A DNA stretch of 64,000 bases. Origin: an uncultured bacterium. Its GTDB lineage: Bacteria; Babelota; Babeliae; Babelales; Vermiphilaceae. Numbering within the stretch: position 1 is the stretch's first letter; the number at the start of each line of letters is the position of its first letter. Below, piece after piece: positions 9,502 to 63,894 of this stretch. Location: positions 1,152,001-1,216,000 of the forward strand of contig OY968764.1 in assembly GCA_963695335.1 (NCBI GenBank), given 5' to 3'. The notes beneath the pieces are model-generated. The model was not told the origin of the DNA. It did no database searches and worked only from the letters and a program-made list of their open reading frames with translations. The translations under genes were made by a program, and so were the position numbers.

Positions 9502-9540
9502 GCGCTCAAGGATATCCTTCGACAGGCTCAGGACGAGCGG
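9502..9540. repeat. Family-A REP-like repeat
   Basis: gatatccttcgacaggctcaggacgagcg; consensus CCTTCRACARGYTCAGGRCGARCG. Confidence 0.85.
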
Positions 9541-14558: not shown

Positions 14559-14589
14559 CCATCATCCTTTGAGGTTAAAGTGAAAAACA

Positions 14590-15140
14590 GGGGGCTTAAA
14601 AGCCCCCGCTTCGCTTTTTAAGATATATTCTACTGATTTCGGATGTATTCTCGTATGCGATCTTCGTTTACCTGACCACTTGTTTCTGCAAAATACCCAT
14701 CTGACCAAAAACTTTTACCCCACAAAAACTCTTTTAATTCTGGAAATTCTTCGCGCACAACTTTACTGGTCATTCCTTTAAACAATTGTACCATCCTGCT
14801 CACGCTTACATCTGGATTCATTTGAACTAACATATGAACATGATCTAATTGAATGTTTAGCTCTTCTATTTTCCATCTTTGCAAATCTGCGCATTCATAC
14901 AATAGATCTTTTATTCTTTCTGCTATCTCTCCTTTTAATACTCTCTTTCTATATTTTGGAATCCATACTAAATGATACATAAGTCTGTGCTTTGTTTGAG
15001 ATCCACACCAATATTTACCCATGTTTTTTAGTATGCCTAAAGAGCCGGCTCTTCGCAATTACTATAACTGCATTGCTCCATCGCCTCCATTTTGACTCGC
15101 ATTCATCCCTGGCTTTGAAAAGCCAGGGTTTTCTGCTCAA
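14590..15140. mobile_element. IS200/IS605-family element carrying tnpA only, with terminal hairpins
   Basis: Hairpins ggggctt-aa-aagcccc (~14591-14606) and ccctggcttt-ga-aaagccaggg (~15107-15128) flank tnpA. Confidence 0.7.
14630..15058 (-). CDS. tnpA: IS200/IS605 Y1 HUH transposase TnpA (start probably ATG near 15022)
   Basis: YHLVWIPKYR, DHVHML (HUH), FWSDGYF, YIRNQ. Confidence 0.95.
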   Translation of the reverse strand: MRRAGSLGILKNMGKYWCGSQTKHRLMYHLVWIPKYRKRVLKGEIAERIKDLLYECADLQRWKIEELNIQLDHVHMLVQMNPDVSVSRMVQLFKGMTSKVVREEFPELKEFLWGKSFWSDGYFAETSGQVNEDRIREYIRNQ

Positions 15141-15289
15141 TTAAATAAACAATATACGCACTTTTTATACAATACATTGTAAGTATTGGCAAGCAATCTT
15201 TCGAATTTATATAAAAAAATGATACTCTTTAAAAAAGAACAATCGTATTCGTTTTCAATAATCAAAAAATTAATCTTTTTGAGGATATA

Positions 15290-16016: not shown

Positions 16017-16598
16017 ATGGATTTTTTCACCCTCATTATTGCGTTACTCGCATATCTTATTGGCGCAATCCCAACTGGTTACCTCATTGCAAAACTGAAC
16101 GGCATTGCTGATATTCGCGCGCATGGATCTGGCAATATTGGTGCAACCAATGTTGCACGCTTTTTAGGCAAACATTATTTTTTTATTATTTTTTTTATTG
16201 ATGCAGGAAAAGCATTTTTATGCATGTATTTTTTGCAACCGTACTTTGATTACAATTATCTCTGCCTCTTTGCAGGCATACTTCTTTTTGGCAACGGATA
16301 TTCCATTTTTTTACATGGCAGCGGAGGCAAAGGAGTTGCAACATTGTGCGGATTACTTGCAAATTTATGCCCAGCAGCATGTTTACCACTGTTTGTCGTA
16401 TGGCTTTTAACAGTTTTTATCACAAAAACAGTTGGAATTGCTTCTGTAGCCGCAACTGCATGCTTACCAATATATGCATATACCACGCATAATCATCCGT
16501 TCTTTTTATTTTCACTGTTTGCTGCCACAATTATTATTTGGAAACACAAAATTAATATTACAAACTATTTTAATGAGAATAAACCGCGCTCGTCCTGA
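16017..16598 (+). CDS. plsY: Glycerol-3-phosphate acyltransferase PlsY
   Basis: DIRAHGSGNIGATNVAR, GGKGVAT, HKINI. Confidence 0.93.
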   Translation: MDFFTLIIALLAYLIGAIPTGYLIAKLNGIADIRAHGSGNIGATNVARFLGKHYFFIIFFIDAGKAFLCMYFLQPYFDYNYLCLFAGILLFGNGYSIFLHGSGGKGVATLCGLLANLCPAACLPLFVVWLLTVFITKTVGIASVAATACLPIYAYTTHNHPFFLFSLFAATIIIWKHKINITNYFNENKPRSS

Positions 16599-34765: not shown

Positions 34766-34839
34766 CGCTCGCCCTGAACCTGTTGAAGGGTATCCTCGAG
34801 CGCTCAAAGATATCCTTCGACAAGCTCAGGACGAGCGCG
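34766..34839. repeat. Inverted family-A pair (REPIN-like)
   Basis: gcgctcgccctgaacctgttgaagg...ccttcgacaagctcaggacgagcgc. Confidence 0.88.
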
Positions 34840-38056: not shown

Positions 38057-38544
38057 GTCTTGTGACCCCTCTGCACTCGCACACAAACATCCTGTTTGAT
38101 CAAGCCCCAGTTTTTTGTTCCACTCCAAACCGGGGACCCCATCGTAAGAATGAAGATGGGGAAAAATTCAGGCCACAGTCTGCTCGGAAGCAGCCTAAAC
38201 CATCATACGTAGCTCATGGGACTTTTTACATTATTTTAACGTTCGCCCATTTCGACAAGCTCAATGCGAACGGAAGATATCTCTTTTGATGCGCTCGTCC
38301 TGAGCCTGTCGAAGGATATCTCTGAGCGCAAATTTAAATAAGTACCTACACATTTCGCATGATGGTTTAGGCTGCTTCTTAGCAGACTGTGGCCTGAATT
38401 CGAAATGATCTAAGGGATCAAAGGGAACGTTTGTGTATCGGGGGTGTGGGGGTGTTTTACACAAATACCCCCACAGAATCAACCGTAACGAAGTGAAGGT
38501 TCAGGTCTCCGGCGTTAAGCTGGAGATTAATTCTTCTCTAAGAG

Positions 38545-38584
38545 AGCGCTCAAAGATATCCTTCAACAAGTTCAGGACGAGCGC
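38545..38584. repeat. Family-A repeat (intact IS110 target)
   Basis: gatatccttcaacaagttcaggacgagcgc. Confidence 0.88.
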
Positions 38585-41254: not shown

Positions 41255-41656
41255 ATGAAAATACAACCTACTAAATACACAACTCTTATATATCATCTCG
41301 CGCTCACCCTGAGCCTGTCGAAGGGCATCTTAGAGCGCTCGAAGAAATCCTTCAACAAGTTCAGGACGAGCGCAGATAAAAAAACTAACTATAATAAATT
41401 ATATATTGCTGCTCTTCTCACTGTTACAAGCACAACATTCTGCATGCATACAGCAAACAAATGCAACAAAGCATATGTTCTCACCACCAACCGAATAAAT
41501 ACTGTACAAGGCAGAAGAGAAGCATATCAAAAATACTGTCCAACACAAATCAATTGGGATCAACCAGCCAATAAACAAACTCCTAAAATGGAACTCAAAC
41601 CTAACCGATCACAAAAAAATGATTGTGGATATTGGAGCCAATACACGAACAAATAA
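41255..41656 (+). CDS. Hypothetical exported protein with an in-frame family-A repeat pair
   Basis: RBS aaaagga; repeat 41299-41373 encodes ALTLSLSKGILERSKKSFNKFRTSA ahead of a leader ..TTFCM. Confidence 0.55.
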   Translation: MKIQPTKYTTLIYHLALTLSLSKGILERSKKSFNKFRTSADKKTNYNKLYIAALLTVTSTTFCMHTANKCNKAYVLTTNRINTVQGRREAYQKYCPTQINWDQPANKQTPKMELKPNRSQKNDCGYWSQYTNK

Positions 41657-55800: not shown

Positions 55801-55911
55801 CCGTTCGCCCTGCCGTGTGCTCCGAAGCCTTTGGCGAAAATGCAAGCTTGTGGAAGAATATTCTGATTCCCCCGCGCTCGCCCTGAACTTGTTGAAGGGT
55901 ATCTTTGAGCG
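55801..55911. repeat. Family-A repeats, one interrupted by B'
   Basis: ccgttcgccctg[ccgtgtgctccgaagcctttggcgaa..]aagcttgtggaag; gcgctcgccctgaacttgttgaagg. Confidence 0.8.
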
Positions 55912-56046
55912 CATTCTTAATAACAATCGAAACACAACACAGTTACTATTCTTTATCAATGATTAAAAAAGAAAAAAGATTTTTTAAAGAAAGAAAAGAA
56001 CGCACTCGAAGATATCCTTCAACAAGTTCAGCGATTATGATCAAAG

Positions 56047-57012
56047 TCAAGTAGAATAGGCATTTTTATTAGGTGCCCACTTTCTATTTTCAGTAAGAAG
56101 AACATTAGCAAGTATAATAAACTTGCGCATTACAGCAATTAGGGCAATCTTAGATGGTTTTCCTTCTTCACGTAATCGCTCATAAAATTTCTTAAAATCT
56201 GGATTATGTTGAACAGCTGAAAGTGTAGGCATATACAGCATTTTTCGTGGTAAGGATCTACCTTCTCTAATGATAGATTTTTTCTTATAATTACCACTTT
56301 CATTGGTGTATGGAGCTACGCCTAATAAGGCTGCAACTTGCTTATTTCCAATACTTCCTAATTCAGAAAAAAAAGCAATTAACGTTGCTGATGTTCCTTT
56401 TCCAGCACCAGGAATTGATGTGATAATATTTTGCTTATGTTTCCAGTCATCATCATTATCAATTAATTGTTCTATTTCTTTTTCCAATTCCTTAACTTGT
56501 TCATCCATAAAATCAATATGTTGTTGAATTTTGTCTTTACAAAATTCAACTTGTGGATGAGCCAATCGTGTTTTTTCTCGACTGATCATTCCCGTCAAAT
56601 CACTTTTCCTTCTTATTAAAGCTTTCAATAATTCTTCATTCTCTTTTGGCACTTTAATGCGTGTTTCCTCTGATAATTCTTTTTGTTGTGCAAACAAAGC
56701 AATCATAGATGCATCAATCTTGTCTGTTTTTGCTTTTGCTCCATCTGATGCGATAAACGACTTAATTCGTTTCGGCTCAATTAGCCATACAAAATATCCA
56801 GCATTACTTAATGTACGAATCAATAATTTTTCGTATCCACCAGATGATTCACATACAACGCGAACAACATTGTACTCAGAAAATACATTAAGTATTTTAT
56901 TGAGACCAGCGGCGCTATTTGGCGTTTTAAAATATTGATTCAATGGACGTAAAAAAACATCCAAATTATCTTTTGAAATATCGACACCAACAAATATTTC
57001 TGTTAGCTTCAT
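56047..57012 (-). CDS. IS110-family DEDD recombinase/transposase
   Basis: VGVDISK, CESSGGY, AKTDKIDA, SIPGAG, GVAP..NESG. Confidence 0.96.
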   Translation of the reverse strand: MKLTEIFVGVDISKDNLDVFLRPLNQYFKTPNSAAGLNKILNVFSEYNVVRVVCESSGGYEKLLIRTLSNAGYFVWLIEPKRIKSFIASDGAKAKTDKIDASMIALFAQQKELSEETRIKVPKENEELLKALIRRKSDLTGMISREKTRLAHPQVEFCKDKIQQHIDFMDEQVKELEKEIEQLIDNDDDWKHKQNIITSIPGAGKGTSATLIAFFSELGSIGNKQVAALLGVAPYTNESGNYKKKSIIREGRSLPRKMLYMPTLSAVQHNPDFKKFYERLREEGKPSKIALIAVMRKFIILANVLLTENRKWAPNKNAYST

Positions 57013-57190
57013 AGTAATTCTTCCTCATAATACGAGCCTTGCGCTCAAGCGATTATTCGAATCTTCTACAAATCTGGTTGATAGCTCTTTAGCTGAAAAC
57101 GGTTCTTGTAACCTAGGACGAGCACAAGACGCTATCAACCTTTTTTTATAGCCTAGTTTCCTAAACCTAAAAAACTCAATAATCTACATG
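57013..57190 (-). ncRNA. Predicted IS110 bridge RNA
   Basis: Two internal loops with guides matching target (GCTCGTCCT / TTCAG) and donor (ATAATCGCT / TATGAG); closing stem ggttgatagc/gctatcaacc. Confidence 0.85.
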
Positions 57191-57334
57191 CTTTTATCAT
57201 ATGAGGACGAGCGCTAAGAATGAATAAATTTTAATTATTCTTAAATTAAATTCACGCTAAATCATAGAAAGTCAGTGAAACTTTCGAATATGCTTTAATA
57301 TAAAAGTATCTGTTTATAATACAAAGGAAAATTC

Positions 57335-58765
57335 ATGTCCAAAAATAGTATACATAAAAAGATTGCTCTCGCCTGCTTTATATCCCTCATAGCACCCATT
57401 CAAACAATCTATTCAGCACAACAATACGGAACTCCAACAGGAACTTCTACACCAACATATGGCGCTCCGGTTACAAATTCTTATCCAACACCTGCACCAA
57501 AAACTAACGGTGAATCAACAGTAGTATACATTCATCAAGCCGTTCAAACACTGAATGATGATGCTGATTGCAACCCAGTAAAATGGGACACTCCAGAAGA
57601 TGCATGCAGTTGTTGCTTAATGCGCAACAAAGGTAAACGAGGCAACAAAAAATCTGCTGATGCCATTATTGAACAATGCACCAAAACAAATAAACAGTGT
57701 ACGGCACAATCCATTACCAACATAAAAAAACAGTACGGTTTATCTGCAACAGCATCATCTCAAGATTTTTTTAATAAATTAGAAGACAACATTGTTATCA
57801 AAAATATGGAGGTGGACAAATCGCTTCTTGGTGCAAACGGCGCATTCACTGAAAACTCTCTACCAAAATTTTTGGCACAAGCGTACAATGAAAAAAAACT
57901 TAAAAATGCAGATTTCAGTAAAGAAGCATGCTTAAAAGCAAAAAATCTTGGAACACAAGGTGGCTACAACACATTGCAACTGTTTCTCATTACTTCAACA
58001 TGTCATGCGGGATCGGCATCTATGTATATTATTAAAGAGGCGCGTAATGGTATTGATGAAGCAACAAAACTCAAAAAAATAGCCGAATATCCTAAAATGA
58101 AAGAGTTGATTGCACCAAACGTTGTTCCAGGACTTCCATCCATTGCATTACCTCTTGCTTATTTTTCCTACCCAGATACCAAATCAGTTCATTATCTTGC
58201 CGCAATGCCTGCAGCAAAAGGTAAAGATCTTTCGGCATATATTATGCAATTCAGAGACAATCAATCAGCACAAAATAAAGAACTGTTGAGCCGCGCATTT
58301 ACCATAGTTGGCAAAGAAGCTGCAAATTTCTATAAACGATTTGGCAAAAAGGTAGTACACGGTGATTTCCACACCTTTAATATTTTTTTTGATCCGATCA
58401 GCGGACATTCTACATGGATTGATACTGAAACAATGGCAAATTCATTTGATAAACCAACTGGTCCTGCTAAAGATATCGTAAAACTCTTTTACATGCCATT
58501 CTGTATCAATGATACATTCCAACAATTTAGAGATTTGATTAAAGGAATTGATCTGAAAACATGGTTTGATATCTCAGTCAAAAATTTTGTTATTGGATAC
58601 AAAGATACCTACAAACCACAAGAACAAAAACAGATAATCCAAGAACTGAAAAAAATGTTTATGGATCCATTTACTATTACATGGGTAGATTTTGATCAAC
58701 AAAAATTGAGCGATCTACAAAAAAATTACATTAGCCCAATTTTTGATGAGTTAATGAAAAAATAA
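57335..58765 (+). CDS. Secreted protein with C-terminal protein-kinase-like domain
   Basis: Leader; GTQGGY, YIIKE, HGDFHTFNIFF, WIDTE. Confidence 0.65.
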   Translation: MSKNSIHKKIALACFISLIAPIQTIYSAQQYGTPTGTSTPTYGAPVTNSYPTPAPKTNGESTVVYIHQAVQTLNDDADCNPVKWDTPEDACSCCLMRNKGKRGNKKSADAIIEQCTKTNKQCTAQSITNIKKQYGLSATASSQDFFNKLEDNIVIKNMEVDKSLLGANGAFTENSLPKFLAQAYNEKKLKNADFSKEACLKAKNLGTQGGYNTLQLFLITSTCHAGSASMYIIKEARNGIDEATKLKKIAEYPKMKELIAPNVVPGLPSIALPLAYFSYPDTKSVHYLAAMPAAKGKDLSAYIMQFRDNQSAQNKELLSRAFTIVGKEAANFYKRFGKKVVHGDFHTFNIFFDPISGHSTWIDTETMANSFDKPTGPAKDIVKLFYMPFCINDTFQQFRDLIKGIDLKTWFDISVKNFVIGYKDTYKPQEQKQIIQELKKMFMDPFTITWVDFDQQKLSDLQKNYISPIFDELMKK

Positions 58766-60559: not shown

Positions 60560-60763
60560 ACGCTCGTCCTGAGCCTGTTAACCCCATCTTCAGTTCCTTC
60601 CGACGGGGACCCCGATTCAACCCCATTTCCATTATATTCCAATGGGGACCCCACGAGGAACGACTTGTCCTCCGAAGCCTTGGCGAAGGAGGAAGTGGAG
60701 ATTGGGGACAAAGAATATCTTCGAGCGCTCGAGGATACCCTTCAACACGTTCAGGGCGAGCGC
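60560..60763. repeat. Multiply nested A/C/C/B repeat composite
   Basis: cgctcgtcctgagcctgt[ccccatc..ggggacccc..[..ggggacccc..tccgaagccttggcgaagga..]..]...ttcagggcgagcgc. Confidence 0.8.
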
Positions 60764-61073: not shown

Positions 61074-61435
61074 CTACTTCACCCATTCAAGACGAGCAAC
61101 AGTAGCTGTATCACTCATGCGTTTTCCCATAGGAATAACACGAGTGTATCCGCCTGGGCGAGAAACGTATTGCGGAGCAATTTCTTTAAATAATTTAATA
61201 ACTGCATCTGTGTCATATGGCAACAATGCATTGCACACGACGACGTGCATTAAAGTCATTACCCACACGTGCAATAGTTACCACATGTTCAACAAGACGT
61301 TGTGTTTCTTTAACGCGCGCTTTAGTAGAAACCAAGATGTCCGTACTTAATCAAATGAATTGCTTGATTACGTAACATCGCTCTTCTATGAGGCGCTTTA
61401 AGATTTAATTTTTTTCGACCATTTTGATGTATCAT
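61074..61435 (-). CDS. rplQ: 50S ribosomal protein L17 (frameshifted in this sequence)
   Basis: MIHQNGRKKLN...HRRAMLRNQA and RPGGYTRV..R.SD.A in different frames. Confidence 0.88.
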
Positions 61436-62478
61436 TTGATCTGCACCTAAGATCTTCTTAACATTTTCTTCATTGATATTCATACCAAAAGAAAGTCCAA
61501 ATGCTTTCATGCTTTCTTTAACTTCATTCAATGATTTACGACCAAAATTTTTAATCTTCAATGCATCATCTTCAGATACATTAACTAAATCAATAACACG
61601 TTTAATCCCAGCATTGATTAAACAATTATGAGCACGAACAGAAAGTTCAAGTTCTTCAATTGGCTTAAGCAACAAATCAACAGGAACACCTTTAAGACTT
61701 GCATCGCTTGTTTTTAATGGTACTTTTTCTACCTTTTCTTCAGGAAGAGAAGATATTTCATTAAATGGTATTTCAGTGCTTTCAAGGAAATGTTCTAATT
61801 GCGTACGAAGAACTGAAACAGCATAATGCAATGCATCAATAGGATTTTCAGAACCATTTGTATAGATATGCAAAATAAGTTTATCATAATCGATCGCTTC
61901 ACCTACACGTGTTTTTTCAACATCAAACATAACTTTACGTATTGGAGAGAACATTGCATCCAAATAAATACGAGAATCATCTTGATATGCTTTATCTGCC
62001 GGCCACTGAGCTTGTTGATAACCACGCCCAGATTCAACAAAAAATTCAACATCAAGTTCACCATCAAATGCTACATGTGCAAAAACATAATCTTTATTGA
62101 TTAGTTCTAAATGATCATCTGCAACAATATCAGCTACAGACACATCTGCTTCACCTTTTTTGGTACACGCATTTTTCCGGGTTTACCTTCTTTATTACGG
62201 ATAACAATATTTTTGATATTAAGAACAAGCTGCATAGCATCTTCAACAACACCAGGTATTGCTGAAAATTCATTATTAACACCTTTAATAATTATTGATG
62301 TTATTGCAGACCCTTCAACACCACTCAGCAAAATTCGTCGTAACGAATTTCCAATCGTTATTCCAAAACCTGGTTCAAGCGGTTGAACTACTAATTCGCC
62401 GCAACTCTCACTTAACGTCTTTTTTTCCCATTTCAACTGTGGAATGATAAGTGGTTTATATTCCCTATTCTTAGTCAT
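61436..62478 (-). CDS. rpoA: RNA polymerase alpha subunit (frameshifted in this sequence)
   Basis: [40 protein letters not shown]. Confidence 0.95.
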
Positions 62479-62514
62479 TCAACCTCCTGCTTGCCTGGAC
62501 TAATCAACTATCTA

Positions 62515-63068
62515 TTACTTCGAATACAACTCAACAATCAAATACTCTTCGATTGGCACTTGAATATCAGCACGAACTGGAAGACGAAGAACTCGACCAA
62601 CTCTATCCTTCTTGTCTAATTCCAACCAATCAGGAACTTTAATGCCAATCTTCATTCTTTTTTCAACAACGTCTCTTAAAAATGTTTCCATTTTTGCTAC
62701 ACGTTCAGAAAGAGAAACAACATCTTCTGTTGAAACTAACAAAGAAGGAGAATAAACTTTTTACCGTTCACCAAAACATGTCCATGAGTAATAATTTGAC
62801 GCGCTTGTGTACGTGTTGTAGCCATTTTTAATATGATACACAACGTTATCTAAACTACGCTCAAGCAAGACTCAGTAAATTTTCACCAGGTACCACCATC
62901 ACGTTGCTTACTTGCTACGGCAAAGAAACGTTTAAATTGACGTTCACGCAATCCGTACATTTCTTTAACTTTTTGTTTTTCTTGAAGTTGCTTTCCATAT
63001 TCAGAAAGCTTTCTTCTAGGAGCTTTTTGTTGCTGTTTTTCGTTCGATTCTTCTCTGACAACTGCCAT
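62515..63068 (-). CDS. rpsD: 30S ribosomal protein S4 (frameshifted in this sequence)
   Basis: [38 protein letters not shown]. Confidence 0.93.
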
Positions 63069-63100
63069 GGTTAATTATCCCACTAAAAAATTATTAACTT

Positions 63101-63484
63101 TTATACACGTCGTTTTTTAGGAGCTCGGCAACCGTTATGTGGCAATGGTGTAACATCGCGCAACACAGAAACATTCATACCCGCAGATTGGAAAGCACGA
63201 ACAACCGAATCTCTTCCAGATCCTGGTCCTTGCATATTTACTTCCAAATTTTTAACTCCAACAAGCTGCATTTCTTTTGCCAAAGTAGATGCAATTTGTG
63301 ATGCCGCAAAAGGAGTACTCTTACGAGACCCTTTAAACCCTAAACGACCCGCGCTTGAACAAAATAGTACATCGCCTTCCATCGTTGTAATTGAAACAAT
63401 GGTATTGTTAAATGTTGATTTAACATGTGCAATGGCTGATTCCACTTTTTGTTTTTGTTTTTTTGGTTTTTTCTTGTAAGCCAT
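63101..63484 (-). CDS. rpsK: 30S ribosomal protein S11
   Basis: [30 protein letters not shown]. Confidence 0.98.
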
Positions 63485-63509
63485 GTAATCAAAACCCTTA
63501 CTGCATTAT

Positions 63510-63894
63510 TTATTTCTTAGTTACTTTACGTTTCAAGGCTACTGGGTTTTTCTTTGGTCCCTTACGTGTGCGCGCATTTGTTTTTGTACGTTGACCTCGA
63601 ACAGGTAACCCACGCTTATGTCGTAATCCACTGATAAGAACCAATTTCTTGCAAACGCTTAATATTCAACGTAATTTCTTTACGTAACTCACCTTCAACT
63701 TTATAGTTGTCAGTAATTTCTTTTTGGATTGCTGCAATTTCAGCATCGCTCAAATCTTTTACTCGCGTATCAAAATTGATGTTAAGCTTAGTCAAAATAT
63801 CTTGCGATTTTGCAAGACCAATTCCAAAAATATACGGCAAACTATATTCTACTCGTTTATTTGCTGGTAAATTAACACCTTCAATTCTTGCCAT
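63510..63894 (-). CDS. rpsM: 30S ribosomal protein S13 (frameshift near 63630)
   Basis: [10 protein letters not shown]...[22 protein letters not shown] in another frame. Confidence 0.95.

Follow-up and report, generated by a model that had tools for sequence, protein, structure and literature searches.

The window, a stretch of 64,000 nucleotides covering positions 1152001-1216000 of a single-contig 1.37-Mb genome (35.7% G+C), carries an IS110 element which we assign, with a probability of about 90%, to the canonical bridge-recombination elements of the IS621 branch and regard as a recent arrival in its lineage. An intact element, a promoter created on circularisation and a multicopy repeat as target are the textbook traits of IS621-type elements (PMC11208160, PMC13626964 and the ISPpu10 preprint), and the element is a new example of this branch whose mechanism is already known.

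Three identical copies define the element

The genome carries three copies of the element that are identical between the cores, each reading GCTCGTC-CT-element-CT-GA. As three identical copies with different flanks are available the ends can be fixed at 57205 and 56030, in agreement with the limits and the CT at both ends proposed in the original prediction.

56030-57205 (-): IS110 element, 1,176 bp including both CT cores, ends from the three identical copies
57204-57205 (-): left CT core, from copy comparison
56030-56031 (-): right CT core, from copy comparison

A CT core at both ends together with precise insertion into a specific target, as expected of the IS110 family, is seen in 3/3 copies, and the long left end of 193 nt and short right end of 17 nt follow the layout of the IS110 group and its IS621 branch. 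The right junction of the window copy was in addition confirmed by one run over 174 nt with no differences.

The recombinase groups with IS621

56047-57012 (-): bridge recombinase, 321 aa, matching PF01548, PF02371 and NF033542

The recombinase matches both domain profiles as well as NF033542 (199.5 bits against a cut-off of 140) and contains the DEDD RuvC-like domain and the Tnp domain with its catalytic serine that characterise the IS110 family, with residues D11, E55, D97, D100 and S239 aligning to D11, E60, D102, D105 and S241 of IS621. Its reading frame and catalytic residues, like the guides described below, are intact, in keeping with the predicted intact element. Among solved structures the only relatives are ISCro4 and IS621, the latter with 32% identity over 308 residues (152 bits), while the match to IS4321 reaches 21% identity and 40 bits in a partial alignment that stops at residue 241, so that relatedness to IS1111-type transposases does not extend over the full length. 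A recombinase phylogeny had been suggested as a check on a mixed IS1111/IS110 character and gave no indication of one; in a 55-row tree the recombinase lies apart from IS4321 in a 22-row clade (100/99) inside a 40-row clade (100/100) without both IS1111-type rows, the deeper order being limited by long branches and by having only two, nearly identical, IS1111-type references. Its length also fits the 315-330 aa of recombinases from the IS492/IS621/Piv branch, and it groups with IS621 rather than IS1111. A close relative of the element may already stand in ISfinder-based tables.

A predicted bridge RNA with four guides

57013-57190 (-): predicted bridge RNA, start placed from the -10 hexamer, supported by fold and covariation
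57115-57123 (-): left target guide GCTCGTCCT, complementary in 9/9 positions to the left target and core
57091-57097 (-): right target guide (T)TCAG, with the handshake dinucleotide CT after it, by complementarity
57048-57056 (-): left donor guide ATAATCGCT, complementary in 9/9 positions to the right end and core
57022-57031 (-): right donor guide ATTATGAG (one bulge) with the handshake dinucleotide GA, by complementarity

The 178 nt upstream of the gene fold with a z-score of -3.69, none of 200 shuffled sequences being as stable, and 12 of 15 consensus pairs show double-sided changes among the 18 closest relatives. No Rfam family reached its gathering score for the bridge RNA, weak hairpin matches being confined to the REP doublet described below. 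At the sequence level the two loops, four guides and handshake bases of the IS621 branch can all be recognised, with the guides matching the target GCTCGTC-CT-GA and the circle junction. The handshake dinucleotides form 0 pairs with their own DNA before strand exchange and 3 after it (1 and 3 for IS621) and these bases favour insertion. The script used to call them returns the published AU/GU of IS621. Background was taken from PMC11208160, PMC13626964, PMC11208158 and PMC11187229.

For comparison, relatives were gathered from genome contigs, metagenomes, related genomes, plasmids and E. coli W, giving 96 full-length loci of which 51 passed an automatic end-finding filter and two more (IS621 and L111) were set by hand; 31 elements were left once duplicates and two near-identical variants had been dropped. 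These are kin and not independent, and counts based on them overstate significance. The left target guide matches the element's own flank in at least 8 of 9 positions in 18/29 relatives, as against 13/672 pairings with unrelated targets. In the target loop the first handshake base pairs with donor position 7 in 28/29 elements as against 3/29 for target position 7; in the donor loop the corresponding figures are 23/29 for target position 7 and 6/29 for donor position 7.

The guides of a related IS110 clade (L096 to L112, L085, L086 and L004; 39-86% identity) follow different targets, many of them CGTC-like REP variants and others unrelated sites, and this clade is a set of natural reprogramming events.

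A consensus promoter assembled at the circle junction

57196-57201 (-): -10 hexamer TATGAT, which doubles as the inner part of the left repeat arm, from sequence
56045-56050 (-): -35 hexamer TTGACT, sharing bases with the recombinase stop and placed 17 nt from the -10 by circularisation alone

Joining the ends across CT gives TTGACT-17 nt-TATGAT, with the TGA stop of the recombinase (56047-56049) inside the -35 and the -10 just upstream of the bridge RNA, precisely the arrangement that had been predicted. The rebuilding of a promoter at the RE-LE junction, an IS110-family trait, is thereby present as a consensus match. Hexamer pairs with at least 5/6 matches each at a spacing of 17 nt occur 190 times in 2.73 million genome positions, and since this rate of 7e-5 per position applies to a single predetermined junction the promoter match there is no chance event. 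Among the relatives 14/18 of the closest elements and 17/31 overall place a -35 of 5/6 or better at exactly 17 nt from the -10; the first three letters of the -10 belonged to the search pattern and the -35 did not. The 13 elements further removed often have a poor -35 at this spacing (3/6 in IS621 and 0/6 in three Pseudomonas elements).

The circle of IS621 rebuilds a promoter across the core (PMC11208160 and PMC13626964), those of ISEc11 and ISEc21 likewise do so across the circle junction, and a junction promoter is described for ISPpu10 (bioRxiv 10.64898/2026.03.19.712850). At the three occupied sites the claim that the promoter exists only upon circularisation is borne out for a consensus promoter, the flanks there offering at most 3/6 for the -35 and 2/6 for the -10, and a promoter scan of the linear region gave 2 sites against 6.1 expected. 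The claim is too strict as a general statement, as at 2 of the 72 empty sites the flank would contribute a -35 of 5/6 and in IS621 low read-through of the linear element supplies bridge RNA for the first excision.

The target lies in CGTC-like REP repeats

The three exact unoccupied 12-mer targets predicted in the window are present at 16588 (+), 38571 (-) and 41360 (-), and if up to 2 mismatches are allowed there are 24 matches where 1.96 are expected. The 12th target base is not required, since copy 3 occupies CT-GAT and a relative of 86% identity with the same guides occupies CT-GAG. The resulting 11-mer has 72 empty copies genome-wide, 7 of them in the window, compared with 14 genome-wide for the 12-mer.

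16588-16598 (+): empty 11-mer target in a REP hairpin, overlapping a stop codon, exact match
38572-38582 (-): empty 11-mer target in a REP hairpin, exact match
41361-41371 (-): empty 11-mer target, exact match
9528-9538 (-): empty 11-mer target of GAG type, absent from the original prediction, exact match
34826-34836 (-): empty 11-mer target of GAG type, exact match
38293-38303 (+): empty 11-mer target of GAG type, exact match
60562-60572 (+): empty 11-mer target of GAG type, exact match
57206-57214 (-): left part of the interrupted REP, with the left target GCTCGTC at 57206-57212, from copy comparison
55996-56029 (-): right part of the interrupted REP, with the right target GA/GAA, from copy comparison
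55873-55918 (+): the other REP of the doublet, in inverted orientation (GCTCGCCCTGAA variant) and 77 nt from the interrupted one, with 36-nt arms 89% complementary

The base following the 72 genomic 11-mers is G in 56, A in 14 and T in 2, yet none of the three insertions lies in the commonest class (GAG), which the 11-mer model alone leaves unexplained. Nearly all of the 72 lie inside a hairpin repeat with a CGTC motif (hairpin z about -3.2) that has about 209 genomic copies in a loose census and that, as a multicopy, mostly extragenic and CGTC-tagged palindrome often arranged in doublets, has the properties of a CGTC REP. The window copy is inserted in one arm of an inverted doublet whose spacer measures 77 nt. 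A small doublet subfamily with an A+T-rich spacer of about 77 nt is found in the window at 55873-56031 and also near contig positions 124334-124491, 546033-546195, 737834-737976 and 1354040-1354193. Two of the three IS copies sit in this subfamily, which may reflect a target preference beyond the guides.

The repeat had been described as a multicopy safe harbour, which is accurate in that it is multicopy and mostly extragenic but not for the targets inside ddl and pheT. Of the exact targets 20/72 lie inside ORFs of at least 120 aa, against a genome coverage of 86%, and most of these are at ORF ends or in doubtful N-terminal extensions. Three are in-frame REP inserts, two in ddl and one in pheT, and murD holds one chance match; insertion into the ddl, pheT or murD targets would probably be lethal. 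The in-frame REPs add short peptides to a double-domain D-Ala-D-Ala ligase (two inserts) and to PheT (contig positions 149054-151516 and 580019-582409) and resemble the intragenic CGTC/RPE repeats of Rickettsia.

No REP-associated tyrosine transposase (RAYT) exceeded the cut-off in the genome, the three Y1 matches belonging to a 571-bp IS200-like element. This element has a Y1 transposase of about 140 aa and is nearly identical in three copies, one in the window at about 14577-15150 (-) and the others at contig positions 369061-369631 and 574421-574991.

Proposed transposition cycle and activity of the element

By analogy with IS621, weak transcription through a linear copy would yield a little recombinase and bridge RNA, for which read-through into copies 2 and 3 is the most plausible source. 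A co-oriented gene lies 54 bp upstream of copy 2 (a glycosyltransferase) and 70 bp upstream of copy 3 (topA). The window copy lies between one diverging and one converging gene with no co-oriented gene upstream, and may depend on RNA supplied in trans. The recombinase-RNA complex would then join both ends at CT and release a circle, at whose junction TTGACT-17-TATGAT, visible in the sequence, would drive transcription and boost both bridge RNA and recombinase. The target loop would pair with GCTCGTC-CT-GA in CGTC-like REPs and the donor loop with the junction, a complementarity that is seen here and covaries in relatives, and the gain of handshake pairs on strand exchange would drive insertion and split the promoter again.

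We consider it improbable that the element is instead a silent fossil, its copies having arisen by gene conversion or segmental duplication. Such an origin could account for the flanks shared by the window copy and copy 2, which resemble each other on either side (97.6% across 1,397 bp, the element included), and would agree with the absence of an upstream gene for read-through at the window copy. It would also agree with a search of four contig sets of low depth (2-5), none of which has a piece spanning the element, where neither circle junctions nor joints left by excision turned up (0/4). These same flanks, however, differ at many positions whereas the elements themselves are identical, as would be expected of independent insertions into two members of the REP-doublet subfamily, and the flanks of copy 3 are unrelated and join the element precisely at CT. 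The intact reading frame and guides also speak against a fossil.

Two short contigs from run X1 join the right end of the element to a REP. The continuation matches the flanks of the 'empty' sites 16595 and 38575 in 30/30 positions, the best of 55 pairs, the next reaching 24/30. All 54 of the 31-mers of the second contig are already present in the assembly and a graph chimera with copy 2 explains it, so these contigs were rejected as evidence of other occupied sites; in the first contig 3/69 31-mers are new, and a single base change at the window's own site would yield them. Run X1 is at most a weak hint of another occupied site.

The sub-terminal repeat has the register of IS621

57191-57201 (-): left arm of the sub-terminal inverted repeat, 2 nt from the core, 10/11 match, register as in IS621
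56036-56046 (-): right arm of the sub-terminal inverted repeat, 4 nt from the core, 10/11 match

The arms match in 10 of 11 bp (TATGATAAAAG against TATGATCAAAG) and are separated by 8 bp in the circle. The imperfect sub-terminal repeats noted in the original prediction are therefore real, but their description as IS1111-like fails as the 2/4 register is that of IS621. In IS1111 elements the arms are set 7 and 3 nt in from the ends and measure 7-17 bp or 11-13 bp depending on the source, and in IS4321 on R751 this layout is accompanied by a non-coding region downstream of the gene. The window element resembles such elements in having a near-perfect repeat of 11 bp, and differs from them in the position of its arms and in a right end too short for a long downstream non-coding region.

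IS621, taken from E. coli W, scores 5/6 in the 2/4 register with its ATA...TAT at positions 4-6, the same positions occupied in the window element by ATC...GAT, here extended. Durrant et al. give the IS110 group a repeat of 2-3 bp, ATA...TAT. Across the 31 elements positions 4-6, which the end-finding patterns left free, are complementary in 30, 28 and 30 with several types of pair, position 3 is complementary in 31/31 by construction of these patterns and positions 1-2 were partly constrained by them. Complementarity drops to 12, 19, 17, 11 and 8 of 31 at positions 7-11. The window repeat is the best of the 31 and lies at the top of a continuum, with seven others reaching 9/11 in the same register, and it would represent the short IS110-group repeat lengthened outward by A+T-rich matches.

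The mixed IS1111/IS110 character that had been proposed finds no support in register, recombinase identity or tree. The corresponding explanation, an intermediate or chimera with IS1111-type ends and an upstream RNA, is very unlikely and already largely refuted. It draws on the length of the one-mismatch repeat, which is within the IS1111 range, on its rank among the relatives and on the few IS1111 elements that do have an upstream non-coding region. Set against these are the shared register of IS621 and the seven 9/11 relatives, the length of the recombinase and its separation from IS4321, and the IS110-type order of the guides with the bottom-strand guide first. As IS621 has the same register and the protein belongs to the IS621 branch there is no IS1111 paradox, and an 11-bp sub-terminal repeat should not be taken as a marker of IS1111 unless its register has been checked.

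Distribution in related genomes

The REP pattern is present in 9/10 same-genus genomes. The window recombinase was found in none of these 10, several of which are fragmented drafts that may lack an IS through incomplete assembly, and in 5/60 relatives, two of these as short or broken matches only. A different IS110 domain occurs in one same-genus draft (1/10), and three single-contig same-genus genomes with 9, 82 and 13 REP matches contain no IS110 domain. This is most simply read as an element that came in recently, already adapted to a repeat resident in the genome. That the element or its recombinase spreads CGTC-like REPs in the genus is hardly credible, for while this would suit a genome lacking a RAYT over cut-off and the CGTC repeats reported as unlinked to transposase genes in PMC3733652, REPs are widespread where IS110 domains are rare, they are present in single-contig genomes without one, and the small sample suggests that REP copy number is independent of IS110 presence.

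Two adjacent ADP/ATP translocase (TLC) genes at contig positions 761450-763748 suggest an intracellular lifestyle of the host and, taken with its genome size and 35.7% G+C, point to the Babelota (Dependentiae). A literature search on Dependentiae with IS or REP, in a collection with few subscription journals, returned nothing on point.

Comparison with known systems

The element shares with IS621 (E. coli; PDB 8wt6 series) and ISCro4 (PDB 9t56) a DEDD and serine recombinase of similar length (32% identical), CT cores, a two-loop bridge RNA, the handshake rule, a junction promoter and a REP target. With IS621 it also shares a left end of 193 nt to the aligned start and a short sub-terminal repeat in the same register. 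Unlike these two elements it targets a CGTC-like REP (GCTCGTC-CT-GA), and its right end is just 17 nt long, the -35 overlapping the stop codon. Compared with IS621 its repeat is longer (10/11 against 6/11) and its junction promoter nearer to the sigma-70 consensus (5+5 against 3+5).

REP targeting by IS110 elements has long been known. ISPpu10 has been shown to form a circular intermediate, to have a junction promoter and to insert mostly between genes (bioRxiv 10.64898/2026.03.19.712850). ISPpu10 and ISPpu9 of Pseudomonas putida are likewise IS110 elements inserting into REP sequences, in another REP family and host. The IS1111 group, represented by IS4321 on plasmid R751, has a DEDD recombinase, a circle junction promoter and sub-terminal repeats of about 11 bp in common with the window element, and differs from it in the 7 and 3 nt spacing, the downstream non-coding region and a protein identity of 21% over part of the length. 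As for the target, the CGTC-tagged REPs described in PMC3733652 have the same terminal CGTC motif, hairpin, inverted doublets with conserved spacer, some in-frame intragenic copies and no linked tyrosine transposase; the repeats here have an extra outer stem around the CGTC motif.

The biology thus repeats what IS621 and ISPpu10 already show. Its usefulness is as a resource: the bridge recombinase is natural and compact (321 aa), three copies fix the ends of the element, the guide set is complete, and the element belongs to a 22-member clade whose guides track different targets. It also extends REP-targeted IS110 spread, as the same strategy, to a 1.37-Mb genome of a putatively intracellular host.

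A possible feedback on the junction promoter

The Shine-Dalgarno-like GAGGAAG of the recombinase (57020-57026, -) overlaps the right donor guide and handshake bases. Because of this overlap and because the repeat and the -10 box are the same DNA we tentatively propose, while thinking it rather doubtful, that the IS621 branch may have a built-in negative feedback in which recombinase and bridge RNA loading on the circle would shut off the junction promoter and recombinase translation. In 23/31 elements the left arm keeps the A required by sigma-70 against a G in the right arm, and symmetry at this position is restored either with loss of the promoter (three Pseudomonas elements) or with its retention (the window sub-clade, three elements). 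In a literature collection with few subscription journals we found no report of a longer IS621-type repeat or of promoter autoregulation. If such feedback exists the window element would be a natural test case, one that may still be spreading into unoccupied REP copies.

Neighbouring genes

Beside the element a gene at 57335-58765 (+) encodes a protein of 476 aa that matches no Pfam family. It begins with what resembles a signal peptide and its C-terminal part is kinase-like, atlas features matching protein kinase or phosphotransferase clusters at 0.96; it is possibly a secreted kinase. Further along, at 61322-63894, rpoA-like and ribosomal genes look split into overlapping ORFs (61322-62143 and 62134-62478, with 63616-63894 short), which suggests frameshifts or assembly errors.
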